This document shows positions 37,696 through 53,677 of a stretch of DNA of 64,000 nt, piece by piece. Location of the stretch: contig JAHLWH010000134.1 of assembly GCA_019058015.1 (NCBI GenBank), positions 10,299-74,298 on the forward strand, read 5' to 3'. Origin of the DNA: Promethearchaeota archaeon (GTDB lineage: Archaea > Asgardarchaeota > Lokiarchaeia > Sigyniarchaeales > SOKP01). The first letter of the stretch is position 1. Each line of letters begins with the position of its first letter. The translations under genes were made by a program, and so were the position numbers. Below the pieces are notes generated by a model. The model saw only the letters and a list, made by a program, of their open reading frames with translations, had not been told where the DNA came from and did not search any database.

Positions 37696-38040
37696 ATGAT
37701 GGCTAAAAAAATTGATAATTTAGATGATGAGATTGCTAAAGAAGGAATAACTATTGTAGATTTTACAGCTACTTGGTGCGGACCTTGTAAAGTAATTAGC
37801 CCAATATTACATAACCTTGAAGATAACGGTCTAATAAAAGTGGTTTCTGTAGATGTTGATTTGAATAAAGGACTTGCAATGAATTTTGGAATTCAGGCTG
37901 TTCCTTATCTTGTTTTTTATAAAAATGGTGATAGAGTTCATAATAATATAGAATTGGAAGGTTATAAAGTTATGAAAGATGGCGTAATCATTGGTGCTTT
38001 AAATGAAACATATTTACGACAAATTATTAGTCAATTATAA
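37696..38040 (+). CDS. thioredoxin
   Basis: WCGPCK active site. 114 aa. Confidence 0.85.
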   Translation: MMAKKIDNLDDEIAKEGITIVDFTATWCGPCKVISPILHNLEDNGLIKVVSVDVDLNKGLAMNFGIQAVPYLVFYKNGDRVHNNIELEGYKVMKDGVIIGALNETYLRQIISQL

Positions 38041-38183
38041 AAGTCTTTTTCATAATTTTTTTATCTAATTTTTAAAAAATATAAGATTTTAATAATATCT
38101 TTAATACGAAATTAGATTTGAAAAGGATTTTAAATTAATTTTTATTTTTAATCCTAATAATAATTACTTTTAAAGGTAATTTT

Positions 38184-38687
38184 ATGAATTATACAAGATC
38201 AGATCTAGTTCAAGCCGACGCTGCAATGAATCAAATGAGGAATGCAATATATCATTTAATTAGATTTATGAAAAAAGAAAATGTTAAAGATGTTAAAATG
38301 CGATTACAGCGCATAGGAAAAAATATTGCATCAACTTACAGCCGATATTGGCTCCCTAAAAGCGCGATAACCAAAGAAAATCTGGATATAATATTAAAAG
38401 AGATATATTCTTCTATTTTTAAGTCAAAAATTAATCTCGAGGTAGATTTTGGAAAAAATATTCTAAAAATAGTGGATAATAAATGCTGCCTATGTAAATA
38501 TAACTATCCGGATATAGACATCCCGGGATGTGAAGTGCTACAAGGGTTTTTACCAAATTTCATTGATATTTTAAATAAAAAACACCCTAATGAAAAAATT
38601 ATTTCGGTAAAACCTAAAGAAGTCAGTAGATCTAGAGCTATTGGAGATTCTCATTGCGTGCAAGAATTTTATATAAATGAGAAATAA
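38184..38687 (+). CDS. V4R-domain protein (Bet3/TRAPP-related fold)
   Basis: KCCLCKYNYP..PGCEVLQGFLPNFIDIL..AIGDSHCVQEFYI matches the V4R pattern C..C...C.f..G...G....a.Gd..C.f.i. Confidence 0.5.
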   Translation: MNYTRSDLVQADAAMNQMRNAIYHLIRFMKKENVKDVKMRLQRIGKNIASTYSRYWLPKSAITKENLDIILKEIYSSIFKSKINLEVDFGKNILKIVDNKCCLCKYNYPDIDIPGCEVLQGFLPNFIDILNKKHPNEKIISVKPKEVSRSRAIGDSHCVQEFYINEK

Positions 38688-38703
38688 TGGGGTGTAGAAT
38701 AAA

Positions 38704-40155
38704 ATGGGACTATTATCATGGTTAATTAAAAAAATTGGGAAGTCGCTTGGAAGAAATACTAAAGCATTATTTTATACTTTATTATATCGAGAAATTTTTA
38801 AAGAGATTTATGATATTAAAAAAGATTTAGATAAATCAGTTAAGATAATGAGATTTATTGGTGGAGAAGCTTCTTTGGAATCTATAAAAAGACAAGCGTC
38901 GATTTTAAAATTTTTACCTGGAGAACCAGATAGGGTATTAAAATATTTTGAACTTATATGGATCATAGTATTCGGAATGGAAATCGGAGAATATGAATAT
39001 GAAGAAGAAGTAGAAGAAGGCTATCCTTATCCAATAGTTCGAGTAAAAATAAAAAAATGCCCAGTTTGTGGAGGATATGGAATGGATCCTGAAGACACTA
39101 TTGATTTTAATGAATTAAAAGCAGACTCCGATGGAATGGCATGCGGATTTATTGGAATGATAGAAAAAGTAATTAATTATCTTCTTATGACAAAAGATAA
39201 CGATTTTAGGATGAAAATAACGGAAGAAAAATGTTACGCTAAGGGAGATGACATATTACAATTCAGAATGGATATTATAAATATTCACGATTTCAAATCA
39301 AAAATTCCCGGCTCTGAAGATTTTATTGCAGGAGAAAATGAACATGAACTATTGTTAGAAACTAAAGAAATTAAAGAAAGTGTGTTCGACAAGCTTCGAG
39401 ATAAGCTAGATTTAGATAGAATTGAAGAATTTTTTGATGAACCTTTAAATTCAATTAAAGAAAATCTTTCTAATCTTATAAGAGATAAAATGCATATGGA
39501 GCCTGAAGATTTTTTTGATTGGTTTACTAATTATGAGAGTGATATTTTTAGAATAATTGGTTATTTGAGCATACATCTACTTAATGAATATGGAGGACTT
39601 GCTGAGAAATATCTTTCAAATGAAATATTTGCAAAAATAAGTGGATATATTTTTCAGCAAATTAAAGAAACCTATAAAATATTTATTCCTTTTGATATAA
39701 TAGATGATTACCATCAACTTTTACTAGAATTTCTTAGAGATTTAGCTCCTGAAGAAATGGTAGAAAAAATTAAAGACCTTTCTCCAACCGATTGCACTGA
39801 CCTTATTTTAGAAGGAACTCAAATGGCATTAGAAGATCTCGGTATTGATTTTTCAGAATTAAAAGAGAATATATGGGAGGAATTAAAAAGACAAAAACCT
39901 ACTGAAGGGGAAAACGAATTAGCTTCTATTACTTCGACTAAAGAGGAAAAAGGATCAGCATTGATACAGATCTTCCAAGAAATATTATTGTTAATTAATG
40001 CCTTGTTGAGTCTTCCAGTTCGGATTATTCTAGCCCGTGAACATGAAAGTATAAAAACCACACTTAAATCAACAACCTCAGGAGGAGAGGTTCTGGAATC
40101 AATAAAACTTCACGCTGATAGAATCGTTGAATTTTTAGAAGAAATTAGAAGTTAA
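38704..40155 (+). CDS. V4R-like N-terminal domain fused to a ~290-aa acidic helical extension
   Basis: KKCPVCGGYG..MACGFIGMIEKVINYLL..EEKCYAKGDDILQFRMDI (V4R-like). The remainder is Glu/Leu-rich helical sequence with no recognised family. Confidence 0.45.
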   Translation: MGLLSWLIKKIGKSLGRNTKALFYTLLYREIFKEIYDIKKDLDKSVKIMRFIGGEASLESIKRQASILKFLPGEPDRVLKYFELIWIIVFGMEIGEYEYEEEVEEGYPYPIVRVKIKKCPVCGGYGMDPEDTIDFNELKADSDGMACGFIGMIEKVINYLLMTKDNDFRMKITEEKCYAKGDDILQFRMDIINIHDFKSKIPGSEDFIAGENEHELLLETKEIKESVFDKLRDKLDLDRIEEFFDEPLNSIKENLSNLIRDKMHMEPEDFFDWFTNYESDIFRIIGYLSIHLLNEYGGLAEKYLSNEIFAKISGYIFQQIKETYKIFIPFDIIDDYHQLLLEFLRDLAPEEMVEKIKDLSPTDCTDLILEGTQMALEDLGIDFSELKENIWEELKRQKPTEGENELASITSTKEEKGSALIQIFQEILLLINALLSLPVRIILAREHESIKTTLKSTTSGGEVLESIKLHADRIVEFLEEIRS

Positions 40156-40178
40156 TTATTGACTTTTATTTTTGTATA

Positions 40179-41162
40179 ATGGAAATTAAAAATTTTGCAG
40201 TACTTGGATATGGTTCTATCGGAAAAATTCACCTTCGGAATTTAAAGAAACATCCAAAAGCCGAAGTAAAAGCAGTATATTCTCGTTCTCATAAAGCAAA
40301 ACTTACTAAAGGAATAAATTTTTATACTTCTTATGAAAAATTGATTGAAAAAGAAGAAATTGATGCAGTACTCATTGCTACTCCCACATTCACTCATAGA
40401 AACATTGCTTGTTTCTGCGCCGAAAATGGTTTAGATATTTTTTTAGAAAAACCAATGGCACTAACACTTGATGAATGTGATAGTATTATTAATACTGTTG
40501 AAATTAATAATGTAAAACTTTTTATTGGGCATGTATTAAGATTTTGGCCTTCTTACCGCTATGTTAGAGATTTTATAATTAGTCCTAAATCCAATCTTGG
40601 TGATATACACACATTTATAGCGAAAAGATTAAGCACATTTCCATGGAGTGAGTGGTTTGCAGATGAAAAAAAATCTGGTGGTGTAATTTTTGACCTTTCT
40701 ATTCATGATCTTGATTATGCTTCATGGATTTTAGGAAATGTAATTTCTCTTTCATGTAAAGCAAAAAAAATAAAACGGTTTGATCGGAAGGTATTTGGTA
40801 AATCCAATACATCCTTAACATTTCAAGATGATAAAAAAGCTAAATGTACAGCGAGTTGGGCCGAAAAAAAAGATTTTATTTTTACTACATATGGAAATAT
40901 TATAGGAACAAGAGGAAATGTAGAATTCAATGGAGAAGGAATATTTGAAGGATATTCAGTTGAGATTATTGAGAAATTAAAATCACATGATGGTTATTAC
41001 AATGAACTATCTCATTTTATTGATTGTATTATTAATAGATATAAGAATTTAGCAATAGTTGGTGAAGATGGTAAAAATTCTGTTGCATTATGTTTAGCTG
41101 CAGTAGAATCAGCAAATAATAATGGAAAAACTGTTTTTTTAGATGAATATCTAAACTATTAA
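40179..41162 (+). CDS. Gfo/Idh/MocA-family NAD(P)-dependent oxidoreductase
   Basis: AVLGYGSIGKIHLRNL Rossmann N-terminus and EKPMALT motif. Confidence 0.8.
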   Translation: MEIKNFAVLGYGSIGKIHLRNLKKHPKAEVKAVYSRSHKAKLTKGINFYTSYEKLIEKEEIDAVLIATPTFTHRNIACFCAENGLDIFLEKPMALTLDECDSIINTVEINNVKLFIGHVLRFWPSYRYVRDFIISPKSNLGDIHTFIAKRLSTFPWSEWFADEKKSGGVIFDLSIHDLDYASWILGNVISLSCKAKKIKRFDRKVFGKSNTSLTFQDDKKAKCTASWAEKKDFIFTTYGNIIGTRGNVEFNGEGIFEGYSVEIIEKLKSHDGYYNELSHFIDCIINRYKNLAIVGEDGKNSVALCLAAVESANNNGKTVFLDEYLNY

Positions 41163-41257
41163 AATTAAACCTTCTCTTTTCTAAATGTCTTTAATCTTTA
41201 TGTAATTCTCTATCCATAAATCCAATAGAAATTCCTAAATTCTTGGCGATAAAGCCT

Positions 41258-42613
41258 TCAATTTTTTTTTAATTGGGAAATTTCTGATTTATACCTTTGA
41301 TAAAATAATTCAACGATATTTTGGAAAAAAAAGCGTTCTTTCAAAACATCATAATGTGATTTATTTTTTAAACTTGTTAATTTTGGTATTTCTTCTGATT
41401 TAATCTTACCCTCCGCTACGAGATTCATTCGACATTTAAATTGGTCAATTAAATCTACTGGTCTAAGAATTATTGAAAATATTTCAGAAATCTCTTTAAT
41501 TAAATCCACTATTTTTAATTTAGTGTTTAATTCCCTATTTGAATATAGATATGAATCTATTTTCTTAATTAGTGACTCTTTCTTATTAATATCAAGATAA
41601 TCTTCCTCTGATATTATATCATCAATAAATCGAATTATTTTATTTATTATGGTTTCATTTATCTTGCTTTTTAAAAATTCATTTGTTAATTTTTGTAAAA
41701 AAGTATCTTTTATATATTTCTTAAATCTGATAATTATTGCTTGACTTTCTTTTCTATCAGAACAAATCTCAATAATTTCACCTTTTGGAGTACTATAACT
41801 AAATCCGTGCCCCTCTGGCCCTAATCCTCCTAAAAAAATCATGGAATATGTATAGAAATTATACCATTTTGGATTTATCATCTTATTTAAATTGATTTTA
41901 ATATTATTTTCTGAAATTAAATGAGTTTTATCGTCAATTTCTATTATTAAGAAATTATCTTCATCATAAATTTCTTTCAAATCAAAATTATGTATTTTAT
42001 TAATGTGAGCTTTAAAGATTTTTAAATATCTTGATATTTTTCCTAAATTTTTTACACTTAATCCATAAACTGAATAATTATTAAAATAGTTACGAATTTG
42101 TTCCGCAATTTCCTCAAGATTACTATAACCTGGATATATTCCATCTGTTTGAACAAATAAATCATATAACCCTTCAGGTAAATCTTTATATACAAAATAG
42201 ATAAAATAATCACTAACTTCTCCAAATATATCCATTAAATTTTCCATAAAAAGAGTTTTTTGCTTTAATTTTTTAATTAAATTAATTTTCTTTTCATTTA
42301 ATTCTCTATAACTTAAATTATAACGAATTACATATTGCAAGATGCTAATAATTCCACCTAAATGTAGATTTTGAATACAATCATTGATAGCTAATTGAAT
42401 TTTTTTAAATCTATCTGGAATTTTTAGAGGATCAACAAAAATGCCTAGTTTTAAGGCTAAATCTAGAATGCTTTGAAAATATTTTAATGAATCAAGAGTT
42501 ATACAATTTGACAATATTTTATGTATGTATTGTTCAGAATCAACATATTTTTTCTCATGAATTTTATTCCGCAATTCTTTTTCTAATTTAGGAAGATACT
42601 TGGGAATATTCAT
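41258..42613 (-). CDS. hypothetical protein, no recognisable family; second gene of the roadblock operon
   Basis: Long uninterrupted ORF 57 nt downstream of the roadblock gene on the same strand. No P-loop or other motif found by eye. One conspicuous Gly-rich patch: IFLGGLGPEGHGFSYSTPKGE. Confidence 0.5.
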   Translation of the reverse strand: MNIPKYLPKLEKELRNKIHEKKYVDSEQYIHKILSNCITLDSLKYFQSILDLALKLGIFVDPLKIPDRFKKIQLAINDCIQNLHLGGIISILQYVIRYNLSYRELNEKKINLIKKLKQKTLFMENLMDIFGEVSDYFIYFVYKDLPEGLYDLFVQTDGIYPGYSNLEEIAEQIRNYFNNYSVYGLSVKNLGKISRYLKIFKAHINKIHNFDLKEIYDEDNFLIIEIDDKTHLISENNIKINLNKMINPKWYNFYTYSMIFLGGLGPEGHGFSYSTPKGEIIEICSDRKESQAIIIRFKKYIKDTFLQKLTNEFLKSKINETIINKIIRFIDDIISEEDYLDINKKESLIKKIDSYLYSNRELNTKLKIVDLIKEISEIFSIILRPVDLIDQFKCRMNLVAEGKIKSEEIPKLTSLKNKSHYDVLKERFFFQNIVELFYQRYKSEISQLKKN

Positions 42614-42670
42614 TACTAAAATAAGGTTATATTAATATAAAAAAATCGCCTTTATTATATCAGTTTTGAT

Positions 42671-43063
42671 TTAATCTAATAAGTTAGCTATTTTTTTAGA
42701 AGCAGCAATAATATTTAGGAAAACCATGCCCAAAGAAGGATTTTGAGATGTCAAAACACACAGGATTGCATTGTTTCCTGCCCTTGATAAAATAATTAAG
42801 CCCTCATCTCCTTCAATCATAATTCTTTTAAAATTTCCACGGGCTAACTCAGATACAGCTCTCTCGGATACACTTATTATAGCAGCAGACATAGCACTTA
42901 TAATACCGTTATTAGTTTCTCCTCCATATACAGTTCTTAATCTTGGGAGGGCGCTAGCTATTGGTAATCCTTGAATACTAACAATAGAACTCCCTTGAAT
43001 TTCAGAATTCATTGCTTCCATTTGTCGAAGTATATTTGCAAGTTCCGAGAGGTTTTCTGACAA
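42671..43063 (-). CDS. roadblock/LC7 (MglB-like) domain protein
   Basis: Helix (LSELANILRQMEAMNSEI) - G - strand pair (SSIVSIQGLPIAS) - helix (ISAMSAAIISVSERA) - three strands (FKRIMIEGDEGLIILSRAGNNAILCVLT) - helix. 130 aa. Confidence 0.75.
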   Translation of the reverse strand: MSENLSELANILRQMEAMNSEIQGSSIVSIQGLPIASALPRLRTVYGGETNNGIISAMSAAIISVSERAVSELARGNFKRIMIEGDEGLIILSRAGNNAILCVLTSQNPSLGMVFLNIIAASKKIANLLD

Positions 43064-43248
43064 TTTTAATCAAAAATCAAAAATGTTTAAAGTATTAATC
43101 TTAACAAAAGTAATATTTTATTACATTAATTTATATTTTTTATTTTTTTTAATGTAATTTATATTTTATCAATTAATTTTAATTAGTGTTTAGAATATTT
43201 AATAATTAATTTTAGAATTTGATTAATATTAGTGATGAGTAAGAAACA

Positions 43249-44292
43249 ATGAGTGAGAAGAAAGCTCCAAAAACAGTTAAAAATCGAATAGAAAATTCAA
43301 CTGAACAACAAAATGAAGAAAAAGAAGATTATAAAGAAAAACCAATTGTAAAAGAATCACCAGATGAAAAAAAGAAAGAAGAGGAAGATGAATTAAAAAA
43401 AAAGATTGAATCGACCAAAAAAGCAGGAGAAATCGCCAAAAAAATAAAAGATGCTATTCGCCCTAAAATAAAAGTCGGTGTAAAAGCAATTGACATAATA
43501 AAAGAAATTGAGAATATGATTTTTGATTTAGAAGCTAAACCTGCTTTTCCAATCAATATCTGCATTAATAACATTGCTGCACATTATACTTCACCTGTAA
43601 AAGATGAGATGGTAATAAATGAGGGAGATATTGTTAAAATTGATTTTGGAGTTCATATCGATGGTTATTGTGTTGACACTGCATTTACTTTAAGTTTTAA
43701 TGATAATGAAGAACTAAAAAATATAGTAGAAGCACCAGAAGTAGCGGTTAAGGCAGCAATAATGATGATGAAACCCGGTGTTAAAACCAATGAGATTGGT
43801 AATAAAATTGAGCAAATAATTAAAGGTTATGGATTTAAATCGATAAAGGAGTTGGGAGGTCATTCTGTAGAACGGTGGAGAGTTCATGGATCAAAAGAAC
43901 TCCCAAACCAAAGCTCAAAGCATGGAATAGAAATTGAAGAAAAAGAAATATTTGCCGTTGAAGTTTTTGCTTCTACTGGAGAAGGAACGGTTCATAGATC
44001 CGGAAATGTGCATATTTATAGCCTAAATCCTTCTGCTGGGAGAGTTCCTTTAAGACGAAAAATTTCCAGAAAGATTTTAGGCTTTATCTCAAAAGAATAT
44101 AAAACATTACCTTTTTGTGAGCGACAACTTATAGCTGAATTAAAAACTGGTATTAGCTTTGGATTACAAGAACTAAAAAATTCAGGGAAAATCACTCAAT
44201 ATCCTGTACTTCTTGAAAGGAAAGGTGTATATATTTCGCAACATGAGGAAACAGTTTTAATTACCAAAGATGGATGTACACAATTAACTTAG
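43249..44292 (+). CDS. map: type 2 methionine aminopeptidase with Lys/Glu-rich N-terminal extension
   Basis: DFGVHIDGYCVDTAFT, GGHSVERWRVHG, FAVEVFASTGEG and QHEETVLITKDG metal-ligand regions. About 55 aa of charged N-terminal sequence precede the catalytic domain. Confidence 0.85.
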   Translation: MSEKKAPKTVKNRIENSTEQQNEEKEDYKEKPIVKESPDEKKKEEEDELKKKIESTKKAGEIAKKIKDAIRPKIKVGVKAIDIIKEIENMIFDLEAKPAFPINICINNIAAHYTSPVKDEMVINEGDIVKIDFGVHIDGYCVDTAFTLSFNDNEELKNIVEAPEVAVKAAIMMMKPGVKTNEIGNKIEQIIKGYGFKSIKELGGHSVERWRVHGSKELPNQSSKHGIEIEEKEIFAVEVFASTGEGTVHRSGNVHIYSLNPSAGRVPLRRKISRKILGFISKEYKTLPFCERQLIAELKTGISFGLQELKNSGKITQYPVLLERKGVYISQHEETVLITKDGCTQLT

Positions 44293-44338
44293 ACTAAATC
44301 AAATATTAAAATAATATAATAATAGAAATAAGATTATT

Positions 44339-45466
44339 ATGCGAAAAAAAGGCAAATTAAACAAAAATAATCCCATAAAAATCTGTCTTGTATCTCTTGC
44401 CTTTTTTCCGGATAAAAAAGATGGATCTGCAAAAATTGCTACCTCTATCTATAATTATTTAAACGATAATGGCTATGATATAAAGGTTATCACTGCAAAA
44501 TGGAATGTTGATTTAAAAGATCCAAATATAATTCAAATAAATATTATTAGAAAGAGATTTTTTTGGTTCCCTCAATTCATATTAAGTGTTTTCAGAATTT
44601 TAAACAAACAAAAATTTGATATAATTCATGGTAATGGATCTAGGGTAAGTATTTCATTTCTTTTTAGAAAATATCTTACTACTATTCACGATCTAGGACC
44701 TTTTGAAACAAGTTTTTCAAAAATCCCAATTTTACTAATGTTAGAAAAATTAAATGCTTTTAGAGCTAAAAGAATAATTACTCCATCAAATATAATTAAA
44801 ATGGGTTTAAAATATTACATTCGACGACTTAATATTAAAAAAATTAAATGTGTATATAATCCAATCGATCCAAAATTTAAACCTTATCCTAAACAAGGCT
44901 TTTCTCTAAAAGAAAAATTGAATTTAAAGGGACCAACTATTCTTTATATCGGACGTATCGCATTTTATAAAGGTATAGATGATATTATTAAAGCCTATCA
45001 CTTAGTAAAAAAGGAAATACCTGATTTAAATTTAGTTATTGGGGGAAAACCTACATTAAAAATGGCAAATATATATCAAAGTTGGAAAGAAAAATATAAA
45101 GATATAAAATTTGTAGGAATGATTCCAGAAGAAAAGATTCAACATTACTATTCCATGGCAGATGTGTTTGTTACTTATTCTAATGCATCCGAAGGATTTG
45201 GTTTAACTCCAATCGAATCTATTGCTTGTGGAACTCCAGTAATTTGTTCAAATCTTCCAGCATATAGAGAGATATTAGGTGATAATGCTATTTTTGTTCC
45301 CCCGAAAGAACCTGAATTATTGGCAGAAAAAATCAAATATTATTTTAAGAAAGAAGAAATTAAAAAAAATTTAATAAATAAATCTCAAGAAATAATTAAA
45401 AAGTATTCTATGGAGTCTTTTGGTAAAAATTTATTAGACATTTATCAAGAATTCCTTAAAATTTAG
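44339..45466 (+). CDS. glycosyltransferase (GT4-like)
   Basis: SNASEGFGLTPIESIACGTPVICSNLPAYREI donor-binding region. Confidence 0.8.
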   Translation: MRKKGKLNKNNPIKICLVSLAFFPDKKDGSAKIATSIYNYLNDNGYDIKVITAKWNVDLKDPNIIQINIIRKRFFWFPQFILSVFRILNKQKFDIIHGNGSRVSISFLFRKYLTTIHDLGPFETSFSKIPILLMLEKLNAFRAKRIITPSNIIKMGLKYYIRRLNIKKIKCVYNPIDPKFKPYPKQGFSLKEKLNLKGPTILYIGRIAFYKGIDDIIKAYHLVKKEIPDLNLVIGGKPTLKMANIYQSWKEKYKDIKFVGMIPEEKIQHYYSMADVFVTYSNASEGFGLTPIESIACGTPVICSNLPAYREILGDNAIFVPPKEPELLAEKIKYYFKKEEIKKNLINKSQEIIKKYSMESFGKNLLDIYQEFLKI

Positions 45467-46529
45467 AAATTCTTTCTTTAAATTTAGTTATACATATTTC
45501 AATTGGATTGTCTAATTTTCTAATTTTTTGAAAAGTATCAATTTTGTAATTACTTTCTAAATATTTAATTGCCTGATTGACAGAATCCTTTGCTAAATGA
45601 AAATGTTTTAAAGGAAAGCCATTATCCATAAGAAATTGCTCTTGTGGATAAGTTTCTAAAGGAAAAAATTCAATAGAAGGCACACCTAATAAAGCAGATT
45701 CTCTCACCATAGTTCCACCGCCAGTAATTACTAATTTCGCAAAATACATTATTTGGGCTAAATTATCTAATCCTTGGTATATTTTAACGGTATCAACATT
45801 AATATATTCATTAAATTTTAACTTAAGAAAATTATATTGTTCCTCATTTCGAGTTATGATTAAAAATTTATAGTCAGATGTATGCTGTAATAATTCAGGT
45901 ATTATCTCTGATAATTGAGTTTCATGAGGTTTCATTTTAATAGCTAAATAACCAGCCTTAGTAGGTTCTGTTCGACACACAACATACTTATCTTTTGTCA
46001 AATTTAAATAATTTAAAACGCTTTCATCTGGAATAAAGTCTGAAAGCCATCCAACCTCATCAATTCCATTAAATCGAATTATTTTTTCTTCTTTAAGCCC
46101 ATATTCTAAATACAATTTTAATGGAATACATTTTGGGACAATAATTTGATTTACATAGGGGAATGTTGTAGAACATGGTCCATAAGATCTTGGTTCATCA
46201 TTAAACATTATATTAGGAATCTGGAGCCCAAAGGAAATTCGTAATGCCTCTGGACTTGTTATACAAAATAAAAATTCTGGTTTTTCCTTACTAATAACTT
46301 CAATTAGTTCTGACAGTCTTTTTGAATATGCCTCTAATTTACCAAGTACAGTTCTCCCACCATACTTTCCTACTGGAATATAATCTACTCCCCATTTATT
46401 TAATAAATAATAGGTCGAATCAAAATCCCTCGCAGTTATGAAAACGTCATTATCCTTCATTAATTTTTCATAAAGAGGTCTAAGCATTGTAACACTTTTT
46501 GGCTCACAAAAATCTAACCAAATTTTCAA
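45456..46529 (-). CDS. DUF354-family protein (predicted GT-B glycosyltransferase/epimerase-like)
   Basis: MKIWLDFCEPKSV..FITARDFDSTYYLLNKWGVDY N-terminus, characteristic of DUF354. C-terminal GGGTMVRESALLGVPSI. Confidence 0.7.
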   Translation of the reverse strand: MKIWLDFCEPKSVTMLRPLYEKLMKDNDVFITARDFDSTYYLLNKWGVDYIPVGKYGGRTVLGKLEAYSKRLSELIEVISKEKPEFLFCITSPEALRISFGLQIPNIMFNDEPRSYGPCSTTFPYVNQIIVPKCIPLKLYLEYGLKEEKIIRFNGIDEVGWLSDFIPDESVLNYLNLTKDKYVVCRTEPTKAGYLAIKMKPHETQLSEIIPELLQHTSDYKFLIITRNEEQYNFLKLKFNEYINVDTVKIYQGLDNLAQIMYFAKLVITGGGTMVRESALLGVPSIEFFPLETYPQEQFLMDNGFPLKHFHLAKDSVNQAIKYLESNYKIDTFQKIRKLDNPIEICITKFKERISKF

Positions 46530-46552: not shown

Positions 46553-47566
46553 TTAAACCCTAGGTTGACAATTCCACTGTTCTAAATTTTCCCTAATCCA
46601 TTCTACTTCTTTTTTAACGCCTTCTTCAAACTTAATTTTAGGTTCATAATCTAATTCTTTAGAAATTAAAGAACTATCTAAAATAAAATCTCTCAATTCT
46701 CCAGGTAATCTTTTTCGATTAGGTTGATATTTGCTAGATTCACCTGGTTTAGGATCATCATAAATTGGTTTTAATTTAGGATTTATGAGTTTAATAACGA
46801 TTTCGGCAACTTCATTAATTGAATAAAATTCTTTTCCTCCAACGTTATATACTTTACCACCAGTTTTCTCATTTTTTAACGCAAGAATATTGGCATCAAC
46901 CGCATCATTAATATATACATAATCTCGAACTTGTTTTCCATCTCCAAATATTATCGGTGCCTTACCCTCTAAAACTCTTTTAATAAATAATGTTAATACT
47001 CTTCCATACCACTCTCTCGGTCCATATACAATTCCATACCGAAGTGAAGTAGTTGGAAAACCATATAATAAATAATATTGAAGGCAATATTTTTCTCCCG
47101 CTAATTTACTCACTCCATAAGGCCAATGAGGCATTAATGGATGATTTTCTGGCTCTGGAGTTAATTGAGCTTGCCCATAAACACCTCCAGAAGAAGCATA
47201 AATTAATTTTTCTACATCATTTTTTAATGCCGCGTTTAATACATTTAGAGTTCCTTCTATATTAGTTCGTAAATCATGGATTGTATTTTCGATTCCAGTA
47301 AAAACTTCAAGTTCAGCGGCATGATGTGAAACTAAATCCACATCTTTCATGCTCTCTTCTAACTTTTCATAGTCTAAAATATCCCCTTTTATTATTTCTA
47401 TAGGTTTTTTTTCGAGAAAATCTTTATTACCAGTTGAAAAATTATCATATACAATTACTTTACCAGCTTCTTCTTCTAAAAATCGATCTACTAAATGAGA
47501 ACCAATAAAACCGGCTCCCCCTGTAATCAAAACATTTTTTCCTTCAATATTCATTATTTTTCCCAT
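46553..47566 (-). CDS. NAD-dependent nucleotide-sugar epimerase/dehydratase (SDR)
   Basis: VLITGGAGFIGSHLVDRF and YGVSKLAGE (YxxxK). Confidence 0.9.
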   Translation of the reverse strand: MGKIMNIEGKNVLITGGAGFIGSHLVDRFLEEEAGKVIVYDNFSTGNKDFLEKKPIEIIKGDILDYEKLEESMKDVDLVSHHAAELEVFTGIENTIHDLRTNIEGTLNVLNAALKNDVEKLIYASSGGVYGQAQLTPEPENHPLMPHWPYGVSKLAGEKYCLQYYLLYGFPTTSLRYGIVYGPREWYGRVLTLFIKRVLEGKAPIIFGDGKQVRDYVYINDAVDANILALKNEKTGGKVYNVGGKEFYSINEVAEIVIKLINPKLKPIYDDPKPGESSKYQPNRKRLPGELRDFILDSSLISKELDYEPKIKFEEGVKKEVEWIRENLEQWNCQPRV

Positions 47567-47598
47567 TATGCAGTGAAGAATCCATATTAGTTAATAAA

Positions 47599-47916
47599 TT
47601 AACCTTTAAATTCCTTATTACATTGACACGGCTTTGAATTACACACATAACATTTATCCGGATATTTATTCTTTAAAGATTTTTCTAAGTCTATATTAAG
47701 AATGTTTGCAATGGATACTGTCCAAGCAATTATATCTGCTAATTCTTCAGAAATGTGGGGAATTTCTAATTCCTCCATCTTTAAATTCCTAGCTAATTCT
47801 CCTATTTCCACTACTAGCCATATAAAATTTTTATACACTCCCCTCTCTTTATCCCGATGATAATATAAATCTTTTATGAGCTTTTGAAATTCTGAGATTC
47901 TCATTTTACAACTCAC
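47599..47916 (-). CDS. MazG-like nucleotide pyrophosphohydrolase domain protein with Cys-rich tail
   Basis: EIGELARNL..EELADIIAWTVSIANILNIDL (EExxE/D-type helices). C-terminal CYVCNSKPCQC. Confidence 0.6.
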   Translation of the reverse strand: MSCKMRISEFQKLIKDLYYHRDKERGVYKNFIWLVVEIGELARNLKMEELEIPHISEELADIIAWTVSIANILNIDLEKSLKNKYPDKCYVCNSKPCQCNKEFKG

Positions 47917-47976
47917 TTAAAAAATATTAAATTAAAAACAATTAGGTTAAAAAAGTTAAATAAAAAATAGTAATTC

Positions 47977-48186
47977 TTAAAGAATCCAATCAAATACATG
48001 CACATGAGAAAGAATAACTATTACAATAAGTATTAAAGCAAAAATGACTGCACTTAATGGGCCAATCTTAATTCCTATGGAACTGTCTTCAAAAAACCTC
48101 ATAAGACCTGCACCACTTTGAGGCATGGGCGAACTTTTTGACCTTCTTCTCTTCCTTCTACTTCTTTGCGACATCTTTTTAATCAA
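47977..48186 (-). CDS. secG: protein translocase subunit Sec61-beta (archaeal SecG)
   Basis: Basic N-terminus (RSRRKRRRSK), SGAGLMRFFED motif, and a single C-terminal TM helix. 69 aa. Confidence 0.8.
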   Translation of the reverse strand: MIKKMSQRSRRKRRRSKSSPMPQSGAGLMRFFEDSSIGIKIGPLSAVIFALILIVIVILSHVHVFDWIL

Positions 48187-48343
48187 AATGTGGTTTAATT
48201 GATATATAATTTATAAGAAATCTAAATTATTTAAAATTACTAAAATATATGTATAGTAAATTTTATGAATTAATGATTATTTTTTAAAAAATATTAAAGT
48301 AAGTTCAAATTAAAACATTTAAGTTTTCGAGAGTCGTTAGAAA

Positions 48344-50203
48344 GTGAAAAAGTATAATATAATATCTAATAAATTTAAAATAAATAAGCATTTTTTATTA
48401 TTTACTTTCTTAATTTCCATCTTAATTTTTTGTTTATTAATTCCATTATTGAAAAATAAAAATAGCAATAATTTTCAAACTCCTAGTACTTTAAAAAATT
48501 CCTCAAATTTTAACACATTTGAAGGTGTTCAAATTACAGAACTCTATAGGAATGTGGAATTAAGTGGAAATGGATTATTAACTGCAGAAGACACATTTAC
48601 TATAAAAAATATCCATAATAACCCAATCTCTTTTATTACAATGGGTATAGATAAATCTTTTATTGAAAATCTCATTTATTATGACGCAAAAGGACCATAT
48701 TCAGAATCATTAGATGTTCAATTCTCAGAAACAATGATTGAGACATTTAAAATGGTATATATTTATTTTGATTGTCCATTACTCCCTTCTCAGGAGATCT
48801 CAATCACTTTTACTCATTCATATAAAGACCTTTATAATTTTTCTGTAATGAGTGTAGGACAAGAGCAAATGCAAACAATTGTGTTTAATTTTTATATATA
48901 TCCAATTGTCCCTTATGAGGTTGATTATGTAGGTATATTTTTTTTTCATCCAGAACTCGGAGAAGAAGTATTAACAATTAATGATTCGGGTGAAGAGGGA
49001 AAATTTGAAGGTGGGTTTTTACAATATTCTAAGGAATTTATGAGGCCTTTCTATTATAAATTGATAATAGGTACCTTTGATTATTCTGAGAACACTAAAT
49101 TGCAAATTGATAAAATATTAAGAAAAATTACATTTAACTCACTAGGTTATTTAATTGTGGATGAGACACTCACAATTCACAATACTGGGGCGATTCCAAT
49201 ATCAGAATTTTCTGTCAAAATTCCAACTGTTGTATCAGAAGTTGAAGTATTTGATTATCTAGGGCCAATAGAAGGTACTTCACTAGACTCAGAACCTAAT
49301 CTTGATGGAACTACCAAAGATTTAACAATTTTATTGACACAAAATAGGGTAACCCTATATGTGGATTCTAAATTCGATTTTTCCATAAGGTATCAATTGC
49401 CCTATGATGAATATCATGTATTTAATTGGCTCTATAATTCTATTTCAATCGATTTATTACTCACAAAATGTGATTATGTTATATATGATCAAGAAATTCA
49501 AATTATTATTGATGGTTGTGAAAATATTATGTCCATAACTGAACAACCTAATTCAATTAAAACGCTTGGGGATGATCTGGTATTAATTTTTAATGATGAT
49601 ATAATTTCACCCCTTGATGAAAAACACATAAACATTATATACACTTTAGATTTTCTTGAAATTTTAATGAGACCATTAATTTTTACAATTCTGTTTATGA
49701 TCCTTTTCACGTCTTTTGTAATAATAACAAAAATTAGGAAAGAAGAATTACCAATTGATGCTTATAGAAAAAGAGATATTCCAATAAAGGAATTACGTGA
49801 ATTTTATTCCTTATATGAAGAGAAAAATGCAATTTACCTAGATATTCAGCAAGCAGATGATGATGTGAAAAGAAAGAAACTTACTAGAAAGAAATATCTT
49901 AATGTGTTAAAGAAATATGAGTTAAGATTAAAATCACTAGAAAACGAACTTGCCCCTCTCAGGAAAAAATTAGAAGAATCAACGAAAATTTTTGAAAATA
50001 TATTTAAAAAACTTGAATTATTTGAAGCTGAAAGATTAAGTTTAAAAGATAATATAAATTTGTTAGAAAACAGATATAAGCGCGGCAGACTACCTTCAAA
50101 AAATGCTTTTGAGAAATTAATGGGCGATTTTCTTAAACGTCGAGAAAAAGTTCGGAAGGCGATAGACCGGCAAATAAATGAGCTTAAAGCATACCTCTAT
50201 TAA
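48344..50203 (+). CDS. ribophorin I (OST1)-like type I membrane protein
   Basis: Layout is N-terminal hydrophobic anchor/signal, ~400-aa beta-rich domain, one TM (LIFTILFMILFTSFVII), then a ~165-aa coiled-coil tail, the same as eukaryotic ribophorin I. Local matches by eye to human RPN1 blocks: ITELYRNVELSGNGLLTAED; ILRKITFNSLGYLIVDETLTIHNTGA versus [32 protein letters not shown] versus VGYNLP. Confidence 0.6.
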   Translation: MKKYNIISNKFKINKHFLLFTFLISILIFCLLIPLLKNKNSNNFQTPSTLKNSSNFNTFEGVQITELYRNVELSGNGLLTAEDTFTIKNIHNNPISFITMGIDKSFIENLIYYDAKGPYSESLDVQFSETMIETFKMVYIYFDCPLLPSQEISITFTHSYKDLYNFSVMSVGQEQMQTIVFNFYIYPIVPYEVDYVGIFFFHPELGEEVLTINDSGEEGKFEGGFLQYSKEFMRPFYYKLIIGTFDYSENTKLQIDKILRKITFNSLGYLIVDETLTIHNTGAIPISEFSVKIPTVVSEVEVFDYLGPIEGTSLDSEPNLDGTTKDLTILLTQNRVTLYVDSKFDFSIRYQLPYDEYHVFNWLYNSISIDLLLTKCDYVIYDQEIQIIIDGCENIMSITEQPNSIKTLGDDLVLIFNDDIISPLDEKHINIIYTLDFLEILMRPLIFTILFMILFTSFVIITKIRKEELPIDAYRKRDIPIKELREFYSLYEEKNAIYLDIQQADDDVKRKKLTRKKYLNVLKKYELRLKSLENELAPLRKKLEESTKIFENIFKKLELFEAERLSLKDNINLLENRYKRGRLPSKNAFEKLMGDFLKRREKVRKAIDRQINELKAYLY

Positions 50204-50241
50204 AATTATATTCCAAATTGCAAAAAATTTATATGATTTAA

Positions 50242-50892
50242 ATGAAACCTTGGCTTTTTGACATCTTAGCATGCCCAATAGATAAAAATTTTCCTTTAGA
50301 ACTCTTAATACTAAAATGGGAAACCAATATAAATGAATTTGAAGAATTCTTAAAAATTTTTCAAGTTCGAAATGAAAAATCCATTAAAAATGAAGAATTA
50401 ATAAAATGTACTGAACCTGAAAATCGTTTAAAAATTCGGGATGGCATAGCTCTCAAATTTAAAAAACCTTCTGAATACCTAAATACGATAAACTCAAGCA
50501 TTCAAGAACTCAAAAATATAATAAATCTTACAAAAGAACCAATAATTAAAAAATGTATTGATATCCTTAAAACAAGCGTAAAGAGAAAAATTGAATCAAC
50601 TATAAACCTTATCTCAAAGGAAGATAAAAAAGAAAAAATAAAGGAAATTATTAATTCTATCCTTCCAGAATTATATCTTATCAATAAATTTAAAATTGAT
50701 ACTGAAATAGAAGAAGGTATTTTATTTTGCTCCAAATGTAATAGATGGTATCCTATCGTTCAAACAATACCTCAAATGTTACCAGATAAATATAGGAATG
50801 AAAAAGAAGATATTACTTTTTTAACTAAATGGAAGGAAACTCTTGATACAATTAATTTCTTACAAAGAGATCTGATCCCATTTAAAATCTAA
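50242..50892 (+). CDS. Trm112-like zinc-ribbon protein with ~130-aa helical insertion
   Basis: N-terminal LFDILACPIDKNFPLEL and C-terminal GILFCSKCNRWYPIVQTIPQMLPD form the two halves of the Trm112/DUF343 knuckle. They are separated by Lys/Glu/Ile-rich helical sequence. Confidence 0.55.
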   Translation: MKPWLFDILACPIDKNFPLELLILKWETNINEFEEFLKIFQVRNEKSIKNEELIKCTEPENRLKIRDGIALKFKKPSEYLNTINSSIQELKNIINLTKEPIIKKCIDILKTSVKRKIESTINLISKEDKKEKIKEIINSILPELYLINKFKIDTEIEEGILFCSKCNRWYPIVQTIPQMLPDKYRNEKEDITFLTKWKETLDTINFLQRDLIPFKI

Positions 50893-50978
50893 AGAAATAA
50901 TTAAAAACTAATCCTTTTAAAATAATTTTAATTATTGTATTATTAAATTAGAATTCATAAAAGGTAAAAGAGAAATAA

Positions 50979-51073
50979 AGCTCCGTCGTCTAGTGGCCAA
51001 ATTTTAAAAAATTAAAGGCTAAGGATTCGGGGCCTTGAACCCCGAAACGCAGGTTCGAATCCTGCCGGAGCTA
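50979..51073 (+). tRNA. tRNA-Gln (anticodon UUG) with a ~22-nt intron in the D-loop
   Basis: Acceptor AGCTCCG/CGGAGCT (7 bp) plus discriminator A. T-arm GCAGG-TTCGAAT-CCTGC. Anticodon arm CGGGG-CCTTGAA-CCCCG, with TTG at 51035-51037. D-stem GTCT/GGAT encloses an oversized AT-rich loop. Locally GC-rich island in AT-rich DNA. Confidence 0.8.
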
Positions 51074-51137
51074 TTATTAGAGTTGGGCTTTTATGCCAAT
51101 CCTTTAAATTCTCAATTAATTTAGGTGAATTATATAA

Positions 51138-52391
51138 GTGCAAAGTTTTTCTGAATATCAATTTGGCGTAGTGGAAATAATTAATTTAGTTATTCTATTC
51201 ATAATTATTTTCATAATAACTTATTTCGTTATTCCATTCGTAATTAAATTCACAAGGTCAAAAGGATGGATTGGAATTGATATTCATAAGGTAGAAAAAC
51301 CTGAAGTTGCTGAGTCCGGAGGAATAAGTATAGTAATAGGGTTGTGTTTCGCATTAGTTTTTATGTTAATACTATTTCCTTCACTTACAAATGAACTATT
51401 AGTTATCATATTAACAATTATAATAGCGGGAGTTATTGGACTTATTGATGACAGAAAAAAACTCTCATCAATAAAAAAAATAATTTTAACTATCATAACT
51501 GGTGGACCTATTTTCATTCTGAATTTTATTAACTTTATCGATGTAGATAGCCCCACAATCCCTATTTTAGGAATGTTACGTCTTAATTACATTTATCCAT
51601 TTGTATTACCTGTAATTATTGCAGTTACAACAAATACAGTCAATATGCTTGAAGGCTATAACGGAGAAGGTTCAGGAACATGTCTAATAGCTGTAATTTT
51701 TATGTTTCTTTCGGGTTTAATTTGGAATTCAGCCCAAGCAGTAATATATTCAGTTCCCTTTATTGCAATATTATTAGCTTTTTTCTTATACAATAAATAT
51801 CCTGCAAAAGTTTTTCCAGGTGATGTAGGAACTATTACTATTGGAGCAATGATAGGTTGTATAGCAATTTTTGGTTCAATCGAAGTGCCAACGTTTTGTG
51901 TTTTATTAGGACATGTTTTTAACAGTTTTTATGTATTATCTTCTATTAGGCGATTACTCGAAAGTAGCCAGATTCAAATAAAGCAAAGTGATATTATCTT
52001 TTTAGAAAATGGTAAAATTAAAGCTTCAAGGGAGGATGATGCAGCAATGAGTTTACCAAGGTTACTCCTCGCAAAAGGAGAATTGACTGAACCTGAATTA
52101 GTGAAAAATTTTTTTGCTTTATCATTTATTTGTGGTCAATTTGCAATTATTGCTGCTTTATCAATGCAATGGACTCTATATTATGATAATTTGGCATTTT
52201 TGATTATTTCAGGAATAATTTTTATTTTAATATGTGGGAGTTTTTCATTAATTATTTATTGGAAATTTCCGAGAATTAGAGGGATTTCAATAATAATGGT
52301 AACGTTATTAACTTGTGGAATTGTTTTTGTATGGTTTATTGATTGGTTTATAGTACAAACACCATTGAATGTGTTGTGGAGTGCAGTTTAA
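51138..52391 (+). CDS. UDP-GlcNAc:dolichyl/polyprenyl-phosphate GlcNAc-1-phosphate transferase (AglH/ALG7, glycosyltransferase family 4 of MraY/WecA type)
   Basis: GLIDDRKKL, NTVNMLEGYNGEGSG (NxxNxxxGxNGxExG, the archaeal/eukaryotic form) and VFPGDVGTITIGAMIG. About 10 TM helices. GTG start. Confidence 0.8.
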   Translation: MQSFSEYQFGVVEIINLVILFIIIFIITYFVIPFVIKFTRSKGWIGIDIHKVEKPEVAESGGISIVIGLCFALVFMLILFPSLTNELLVIILTIIIAGVIGLIDDRKKLSSIKKIILTIITGGPIFILNFINFIDVDSPTIPILGMLRLNYIYPFVLPVIIAVTTNTVNMLEGYNGEGSGTCLIAVIFMFLSGLIWNSAQAVIYSVPFIAILLAFFLYNKYPAKVFPGDVGTITIGAMIGCIAIFGSIEVPTFCVLLGHVFNSFYVLSSIRRLLESSQIQIKQSDIIFLENGKIKASREDDAAMSLPRLLLAKGELTEPELVKNFFALSFICGQFAIIAALSMQWTLYYDNLAFLIISGIIFILICGSFSLIIYWKFPRIRGISIIMVTLLTCGIVFVWFIDWFIVQTPLNVLWSAV

Positions 52392-52513
52392 CCGCTATTG
52401 GCTTAGGACTATGGTATTATGTAGGTTGCTTCCGTTATTTTTGGAAGCAAATTGATAAAATGAAGAAAAGAGAAGATAAAGAAAATATTTAAGCCAGCTT
52501 AATTCAAACCAAG

Positions 52514-53677
52514 TCATTTAAGATTTTTATAATTTTTAATTATATCAATTAGCTTTTTAGATAATTTTGCAGAATTGAGTTTTTTTTGAAACAATTCATA
52601 TCCATTCAATGCAATTTCATTTCTCAATTTTTCATTTTCATATAATGTGATAATAGCATTTGCTAGGCTATCTGGATCGGCGATTTTACATAAGTAACAA
52701 TTCTTTTGATGCGTTAATAGTTCATTTATTGCTTTTGTATTTGCGGTAATTATTGGTTTTCTCATTGCTAATGCAGTATAAACTTTATTTGGAATAACTC
52801 TTCTCGCTTTCAACGTAGAACCAAATATTCCCAATTGAATATCAGACCTTGCAATTGTTTGTGGTATTAGATTAATTGGAATTTGAGGAAAAAAACTAAT
52901 ATTTGAAATTCCAAGTTTTTTAACAATTTTTTTCGTTTCAAATATCTCTGGTTTTGTTCCACCGACAATTTCAAATATTATGTCTTTAGTATATTGTTCT
53001 ATTCTTTTAGCTGATTTAATAATATATTCAATCCCATGCAATGGAATGTAATTACCATTAAATCCAATAACAAACTTATCTTTAAATCCTTCATATTTCT
53101 GAGGATAAAACAACACCTCGTTAACTCCTAAAAATATCCTAAAAATTTTTTTTGGATTTAAATGGAAAAATTGACTAAATCGATATTTTTCCATATCTGA
53201 TTGTGAAATTATTAAATCTGATAAATGAAAAGCAATCCATTCAATTAAGTAATAAAATTTTGCTAAAAACGATTTCTTTTTCAATTTTCGATAATCCATT
53301 GTAACAGAATCAATTAAAGAAGTGTATGGATTAAAAATAATTGGGATTTTTCTATTAAATATTTTCCATGATAAAATTCTTAAAAAATATGCTAAGTATA
53401 ATGATTCGTGACCCGGATAACCGATATAAATACAAACTATATCATAATAATTTGATTTAAAATATTTTTTAATTAAATTAATGTTACGATTTATAAAATT
53501 CCTAAAAAATGATAAAGTAAACATATGTTTTTGATTAGTTAAAAAATCTCTTACTAGATTAGGGGTCGAAAAATTTACTGTAATAATCTCTATATCTTTG
53601 ATTTTTTTCAAACCATTTAGAAAAACTCTATTCACATTTCTATTTTCGTCAAATGCTCCAAAAAAACAAATTTTCAT
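52514..53677 (-). CDS. glycosyltransferase (GT-B fold)
   Basis: FVIGFNGNYIPLHGIEYII..IFEIVGG..VIPNKVYTALAMRKPIITANT layout of Glycos_transf_1-like proteins. Confidence 0.6.
   Translation of the reverse strand: MKICFFGAFDENRNVNRVFLNGLKKIKDIEIITVNFSTPNLVRDFLTNQKHMFTLSFFRNFINRNINLIKKYFKSNYYDIVCIYIGYPGHESLYLAYFLRILSWKIFNRKIPIIFNPYTSLIDSVTMDYRKLKKKSFLAKFYYLIEWIAFHLSDLIISQSDMEKYRFSQFFHLNPKKIFRIFLGVNEVLFYPQKYEGFKDKFVIGFNGNYIPLHGIEYIIKSAKRIEQYTKDIIFEIVGGTKPEIFETKKIVKKLGISNISFFPQIPINLIPQTIARSDIQLGIFGSTLKARRVIPNKVYTALAMRKPIITANTKAINELLTHQKNCYLCKIADPDSLANAIITLYENEKLRNEIALNGYELFQKKLNSAKLSKKLIDIIKNYKNLK

Follow-up and report, generated by a model that had tools for sequence, protein, structure and literature searches.

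The 64,000-nucleotide stretch analysed here (the window; Promethearchaeota archaeon, assembly GCA_019058015.1, contig JAHLWH010000134.1, positions 10,299 to 74,298) carries a gene for a Roadblock/LC7 protein, Robl, which is followed on the same strand by a gene for a 451-aa protein that we call X (Table 1). Genome comparison indicates that the two genes constitute a conserved module, apparently already present in the common ancestor of the Asgard lineages sampled. X represents a near-universal Asgard family with a confident structural model and without a recognised relative. While the Roadblock protein itself is of a known kind, its conserved pairing with a protein of unknown fold is new, and no description of the X family or of the Robl-X pair was found in the literature searched. 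We tentatively propose that X serves as a dedicated partner or scaffold of a Robl dimer, possibly together with the products of an adjacent TRAPPC3-like gene pair.

Conservation of the Robl-X gene pair

Gene neighbourhoods were established by calling open reading frames (ORFs) in 84 fetched loci (L numbers below) and identifying the neighbours with jackhmmer, and the orthologous clade of X was defined on a neighbour-joining tree of the family. Throughout this clade, wherever upstream DNA is present, Robl lies directly upstream of X on the same strand, in 61 ORFs that represent 57 non-redundant loci. The gap between the two genes measures 10-208 nt, mostly 63-77 nt. The metagenome-assembled genomes (MAGs) in which the pair occurs are labelled Thor (L010, L077), Odin (L051), Hermod (L029, L043, L067) and Hod (L026, L036, L059, L060), and many are of Loki type. 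The preliminary description of this DNA had proposed conservation of the neighbours in related genomes as a check of the pair; given its presence in 57/57 loci from these lineages, the adjacency is not peculiar to one genome. It is retained although the X orthologues share a median pairwise identity of only 47%.

About 21 further X genes fall into separate paralogous clades without a Robl neighbour and in unrelated contexts. Adjacent genes encode SRP19-like, HypA-like, S8e-like and proteasome-beta-like proteins, named from their translations only, and, according to Pfam, HIRAN, radical SAM and histidine kinase proteins; no consistent partner gene was found among these neighbours, and none of them encodes a Roadblock protein. 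In L035, L082 and L083, a Robl-less X paralogue occurs in tandem, head to tail, beside a gene for a 99-aa predicted membrane protein.

The Roadblock protein

The preliminary assignment of the upstream gene to the Roadblock/LC7 family was confirmed. Robl matches Pfam Robl_LC7 (PF03259) with an E-value of 4.2e-12 and 46.1 bits (cutoff 23) over profile positions 14-91 of 91, as well as the solved Roadblock proteins 9JUE (E 1.3e-22), 7F8M (5.4e-17), 7YH1 (5.5e-8) and 3LEQ from Streptomyces (1.3e-5), which identifies the ORF as a Roadblock/LC7 protein; its homologues form 348 clusters. The TTG start appears to be right, because the orthologues begin with MSENISEL in the alignment, like the window protein with MSENLSEL, and a public 116-aa call from an internal ATG in an ABR01 MAG (L001 5586-5936) is probably too short.

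The orthologue group is Asgard-wide and almost invariant, with a usual length of 123 aa, and the window lineage is distinguished in the alignment by a 7-aa loop insertion (PRLRTVYGGETNN versus AR...DVND). Syntenic copies share a median pairwise identity of 82% (minimum 64%), and those from MAGs carrying different phylum labels are almost identical. For an adaptor protein of 123 aa, this degree of identity is very high, which suggests that most of the Robl surface is constrained, and the lower median of 72% among syntenic copies of the adjacent M24 metallopeptidase likewise argues for many constrained surfaces. The protein is acidic (isoelectric point, pI, 4.6-5.4) and, judging from the solved Asgard Roadblock homodimers, should dimerise through a beta-sheet edge and helix alpha2. 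An orthologue of the syntenic group is not among the solved structures; the nearest are 9JUE with 50-54% identity, for which no description was found in the literature searched either, and 7F8M with about 39%.

The X family

The preliminary description had placed a 451-aa ORF without a P-loop or a familiar family signature 57 nt downstream of Robl on the same strand. The coordinates and the gap are exact, and the searches of Pfam, NCBIfam, PDB sequences (queried both with X alone and with a profile) and, by Foldseek, of structures returned no assignment. The designation of X as an orphan has to be abandoned, as we found at least 285 homologues with about 40% identity over the full length, constituting an Asgard-wide family with ancient paralogues. 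These homologues and the confident model clearly speak for a genuine gene. Every named homologue comes from Asgard archaea (Promethearchaeota, Loki, Thor, Odin, Hermod, Hod), and among the GTDB species, each represented by one genome, 124 X-encoding loci were detected, all in archaeal MAGs and Asgard where named. In an exhaustive HMMER search of 1.84 billion representative proteins, the X profile recovered only 99 clusters, with no relatives in eukaryotes, bacteria or other archaea, and the divergent full-length members that bear names are Helarchaeota.

Seventy-four members of the family were compared with Pfam, and neither DENN nor any other family was matched even at E-values up to 5. A motif scan for a P-loop was negative; the sole glycine-rich stretch, GGLGPEGHG, lacks K[ST] and, in the model, is flanked by two beta strands. 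The C25 peptidase P0210 (E 2e-4), considered as a remote relative, proved to be a spurious match.

Thirty-four positions are invariant in the family. The core block LLGGLGPxGHGFxYSTPKGExIEICSD (residues 258-286) belongs to the central module, and a second block, KLTSLKxKSHYDVLRERFFFQ (residues 411-431), to the C-terminal helical domain. The AlphaFold2 model, built from a 74-sequence alignment, is confident and compact, with a predicted local distance difference test (pLDDT) of 84.4 and a predicted template modelling score (pTM) of 0.82. It comprises a helical N-terminal domain (about residues 1-155), a central alpha/beta module with beta-hairpins (about 166-290) and a helical C-terminal domain (about 299-450); X has no transmembrane segment. 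A Foldseek search with this model gave nothing significant in the PDB (best E 0.18, TM-score about 0.1) or among the viral proteins of BFVD. The central module modelled alone reached a pLDDT of 59, which is unreliable, and in the predictions it evidently needs the surrounding helical domains. The possibility that this module is a cryptic Roadblock or longin domain found no support in either profile-profile comparison with hhalign or a search with the Robl hidden Markov model. Nor did hhalign show a relationship of X to p483 or p167, two proteins encoded nearby.

A 597-aa protein, P0207 (L085 1328-3121, JGI metagenome 3300069122), matches the central module alone with 26% identity over 136 aa and keeps GG..PEG.G.TY.TP.GE..EIC, thus the glycine loop and the Cys. 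As only this module is present in P0207, with both features retained, the central module behaves as an evolutionary unit, and P0207 could represent either a strongly diverged X or another family in which the same module is used. The P0207 gene adjoins a methyltransferase gene.

Long forms of X with an overall length of 678-763 aa are encoded in L009, L011, L013, L022, L024, L025, L037, L040 and L048. Their helical N-terminal extension of about 240-280 aa contains a CxxC...CxxC zinc-ribbon-like motif and is not a Roadblock domain, so they were dismissed as Roadblock fusions, and the 592-aa P0007, another candidate for a Robl-X fusion, is a truncated long form.

The intergenic gap and transcription of X

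Co-transcription of the two genes, as assumed in the preliminary description, is called into question by the gap. In the window, a run of seven T residues comes just after the Robl stop codon and the TATA-like TTTATATTAA is read about 27 nt upstream of the X ATG, which makes an internal terminator and promoter possible. The BRE/TATA-like (BRE, transcription factor B recognition element) AAAATTTTATTTTC occupies a fixed position at -44 of the X ATG in 11 or more different gap sequences from many lineages, and related variants are found in others; the gaps with this element include those of L004, L046, L047, L051, L055, L064, L067, L068 and L084, where it is followed by a CCTTTGACTTGATAG-like sequence. 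The element has been conserved despite considerable divergence of the X proteins between lineages, and it resembles either a 5' leader element or a BRE/TATA promoter of archaeal type. We infer cautiously, in view of the AT-richness of these genomes (GC about 29% in the window), that X may be transcribed from its own promoter, whether or not transcription also reads through from Robl.

Small GTPases

The preliminary description had also implied a link to a GTPase, which found no genomic support in the motif scan of the window and the 84 loci. No small GTPase is encoded in the 64-kb window as judged by the G1, G3 and G4 motifs; a GTPase-activating protein of MglB type in a Roadblock-GTPase module would call for a cognate small GTPase gene, and none accompanies the pair here. 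Asgard genomes contain dozens of Roadblock/longin genes, and GTPase and Roadblock genes are generally not found in common operons (PMC10933270). The GTPase-free Robl-X locus agrees with the rarity of such operons, which is also the reason why the partners of Asgard Roadblock proteins are essentially unknown (PMC10933270). In L037 (2215-3618, minus strand) and L025 (2325-3728, minus strand), and only in these two related genomes, a GTPase gene lies about 3.4 kb upstream of the Robl-less long-form X. Its 467-aa product belongs to the Gtr1/RagA family and has an N-terminus with a weak likeness to folliculin/longin.

The conserved gene block

The pair is embedded in an eight-gene block (window 37696-46529 and loci L005-L084), which is kept in Loki, Thor, Odin, Hermod and Hod MAGs. 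With Robl taken as the plus strand, its order is DUF354(+), family 4 glycosyltransferase (-) and M24 metallopeptidase (-), then Robl(+) and X(+), then p483(-), p167(-) and thioredoxin(-). Such conservation is unusual, most genes for eukaryotic signature proteins of Asgard archaea being reportedly located outside conserved neighbourhoods. M24 is divergent from Robl in 51/57 loci, and four of the others are at contig edges. On the other side, p483 is present in 46/57 loci and converges on X, in most lineages as the gene directly next to it, with its end at most 100 nt from the X stop codon in 22 and at most 1.5 kb in 38 of them; p167 is present in 42/57 and the thioredoxin gene in 39/57, and the three form an operon in the order thioredoxin-p167-p483. 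The median identity of syntenic copies is 69% for p483 and 55% for p167.

These two proteins had been described as tandem V4R proteins, which is valid for p167 at the superfamily level, through TRAPPC3, and could not be upheld for p483, which stays unassigned; the Pfam V4R model matches neither. The p167 family profile matches Thor-TRAPPC3 (7YH2, E 1.1e-7; 7YH3, E 7.4e-7) over about 107 profile positions. Its invariant C101, C104, C116 and C158 fit the four-Cys Zn site described in TRAPPC3/V4R proteins (PMC10933270). The only match of p483 is a sub-threshold, ARL2BP-like one at residues 253-358 (E 0.15); an N-terminal CPxC...AC region of p483 appears V4R-like by eye, and hhalign gives no support for it. 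p167 is basic and p483 very acidic, as X is basic and Robl acidic.

Interpretation of the gene pair

In the partner or scaffold reading, which we favour only tentatively, the almost invariant acidic Robl would form a dimer by analogy with the solved Asgard Roadblock proteins, and X, as a soluble, basic, three-domain protein, would bind specifically this dimer. Together they could constitute a regulatory or assembly platform with a logic like that of the Ragulator, MglB-cofactor and TRAPP-type Roadblock/longin platforms; its target would probably be a small GTPase encoded elsewhere in the genome, and the convergent thioredoxin-p167-p483 operon may perhaps belong to the same functional module. 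We infer the physical binding, the platform function and the GTPase involvement from several observations. The adjacency in all 57 loci, in spite of the divergence of X to about 47% identity, argues for a dedicated partner, as do the short, co-directional and typically 63-77 nt gaps. The high identity of syntenic Robl copies, above that of M24, points in the same direction. The charges are complementary (pI 8.8 for X versus 4.6-5.4 for Robl), the X model is compact and confident, and its motifs are strongly conserved. The reading is also consistent with the solved Asgard Roadblock proteins being dimeric platforms, and with the persistence of a TRAPPC3-like gene beside the pair, since TRAPP mixes Bet3-fold and longin/Roadblock-like subunits (PMC10933270).

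Several observations speak against a dedicated partnership. The Robl-less X paralogues retain the core motifs equally well, from which it follows that the core activity of X needs no adjacent Robl, and the Robl neighbour is absent in the long forms of L024, L025 and L037 and in the Helarchaeota copy examined. No Robl-X fusion proteins were found in the family. A small GTPase gene occurs within 8 kb in only 3/84 loci, sporadically and never at a syntenic Robl-X locus; these GTPases are of RagA/Gtr1 and Rab type and lie near Robl-less X copies. Judging from the promoter-like element conserved between the two genes, X seems able to be transcribed independently, and the adjacency may in part reflect inherited gene order, since the whole eight-gene block is conserved.

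As an alternative, X could be an autonomous enzyme or ligand-binding protein with its active site or metal site in the conserved glycine-rich beta-loop-beta core, which contains an invariant Cys and an invariant His, and its position next to Robl would be the inherited order of a housekeeping block. The retention of the motifs in Robl-less paralogues fits this view, and so do the invariant polar residues in the motifs (H231, E279, E282, C284, S285, D286, D390, Q391 and R395, with a near-invariant SHYD), the fact that even P0207 and the most divergent copies keep the glycine loop and the Cys, the housekeeping genes in the block, e.g., for the M24 peptidase and glycosyltransferases, and the thioredoxin gene conserved nearby. 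However, X resembles no enzyme family or fold, its isolated central module does not fold confidently in AlphaFold2, and the adjacency to Robl is far stricter than drift would predict at such divergence, and we consider an autonomous X rather unlikely. The same strictness bears on a further alternative, that the gene order is a frozen accident, with Robl being one of dozens of Asgard Roadblock paralogues that have other partners and X being unrelated to it. The promoter-like element in the gap, the X paralogues and some orthologues without Robl, and the generally non-operonic organisation of Asgard Roadblock and GTPase genes (PMC10933270) are in its favour, but 57/57 loci across phylum-level lineages at about 47% X identity would hardly be kept without selection, which renders a mere accident improbable.

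A wider association could be imagined, a TRAPP-like complex or proto-TRAPP to which Robl, X, p167 and p483 would each contribute a subunit, combining Bet3-fold and Roadblock proteins with two Asgard-specific large subunits. The TRAPPC3-like character of p167, the frequent position of p483 as the immediate convergent neighbour of X, the high conservation of all four proteins, the charge pairs of basic p167 with very acidic p483 and of basic X with acidic Robl, and the mixture of Bet3-fold and longin-type subunits in TRAPP (PMC10933270) are compatible with such a complex. On the other hand, the genes belong to two convergent operons and not to a single transcription unit, and these operons can be separated by insertions of 0.5-6 kb, including the Gfo/Idh/MocA gene of the window. 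The locus has no linked gene for a Rab-like GTPase, the Bet3/V4R fold is found in simple ligand-binding domains as well, and X and p483 resemble no TRAPP subunit: neither has a Pfam or PDB-sequence match to one, nor does X have a Foldseek match in the PDB. We regard the four-subunit complex as unlikely.

If the products of the pair bind each other, they would form a native Asgard complex centred on a Roadblock protein, the first of its kind to be defined. The locus provides one specific pairing, in which the most conserved Roadblock orthologue seen here is always followed by X, near a TRAPPC3-like gene pair, and it would offer a handle on platforms of this kind before the eukaryotic Ragulator and TRAPP. 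A more far-reaching possibility, which we consider doubtful, is that X with a new fold and the Robl dimer, perhaps with p167 and p483, form an Asgard-universal complex without a described counterpart, an ancestral Roadblock/Bet3 platform that predates or parallels Ragulator and TRAPP and is absent from eukaryotes or has diverged there beyond recognition. Should X and Robl not bind, the X family would still be worth a structural solution in its own right.

Comparison with known systems

The proposed arrangement has the same logic as Ragulator, in which Roadblock dimers held by a non-Roadblock scaffold serve as a GTPase platform. There, the Roadblock dimers LAMTOR2/3 and LAMTOR4/5 are wrapped by LAMTOR1, a lipidated helical protein that is short and extended, whereas X is a compact protein of three domains and 451 aa without similarity to it, and no Rag GTPase is linked to the locus. 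Among bacteria, the MglB/MglA system and the CvnB conservon share a homologous Roadblock domain with Robl (3LEQ is CvnB5), but they have a GTPase gene beside the Roadblock gene, while the conserved neighbour here is X.

Among the Asgard archaea themselves, the solved proteins Thor-RB and MKD1-RB (7F8M, 7YH1) are homodimers resembling MglB and LAMTOR2, and for one solved Asgard Roadblock protein a role as a protein-protein scaffold was proposed (PMC10933270). By its sequence match, Robl is likewise a full-length protein of this type; a partner like X was not reported for the solved proteins, and the X-family profiles match no PDB sequence. A conserved Asgard operon of a LAMTOR1-like Roadblock, a Rab-like GTPase and a DENN protein was described (Liu et al., 10.1101/2020.10.19.343400), which is likewise a conserved neighbourhood around a Roadblock gene. 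The Robl-X locus differs from it in having no GTPase gene, and X has no DENN match and contains a central module with beta-hairpins. With the TRAPP core, the locus shares the combination of a TRAPPC3-like gene and a Roadblock-superfamily gene kept side by side; it differs in the large proteins X and p483, which are unlike any TRAPP subunit, in the two convergent units and in the lack of a linked Rab gene.

Other features of the window

Table 1. Positions of the Robl-X pair and of surrounding features in the window
Feature	Position	Strand	Description and basis
p167, TRAPPC3/Bet3/V4R superfamily	38184..38687	+	Profile match to Thor-TRAPPC3, four invariant Cys
p483	38704..40155	+	Family without assignment, net charge about -34
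Gfo/Idh/MocA oxidoreductase	40179..41162	+	Pfam; between X and p483
X	41258..42613	-	451 aa, ATG start; soluble, basic (pI 8.8), Asgard-restricted family
Robl-X gap	42614..42670	-	57 nt; T7 run, then TATA-like TTTATATTAA
Robl, Roadblock/LC7 gene	42671..43063	-	130 aa, TTG start; Pfam PF03259, PDB matches, orthologue alignment
Robl/M24 intergenic region	43064..43248	.	185 nt, AT-rich, divergent, common to both genes
M24 metallopeptidase, methionine-aminopeptidase type	43249..44292	+	Pfam PF00557 E 5e-33, synteny
Sec61beta	47977-48186	-	Secretion/N-glycosylation neighbourhood
Ribophorin I	48344-50203	+	Secretion/N-glycosylation neighbourhood
Glycos_transf_4 (AglH/ALG7-like)	51138-52391	+	Secretion/N-glycosylation neighbourhood

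The Gfo/Idh/MocA gene, placed about 1 kb from the pair in the preliminary description, is in fact convergent with X and ends 95 nt from the X stop codon. Its insertion is lineage-specific, being found in the window and its closest relatives (L001-L007), and it stands outside the conserved block. The closest public relatives, for the genes studied, are Promethearchaeota/Promethearchaeia MAGs (Lokiarchaeia-type Asgard) with 88-92% protein identity. In the M24 protein of the window, an N-terminal, K/E-rich extension of about 55 aa precedes the Pfam domain; its orthologues elsewhere measure about 325 aa. Beyond the block, positions 46553-53677 constitute a secretion and N-glycosylation neighbourhood, in which genes for an NDP-sugar epimerase, a MazG-like protein, a Trm112-like protein and a family 1 glycosyltransferase accompany those listed in Table 1.

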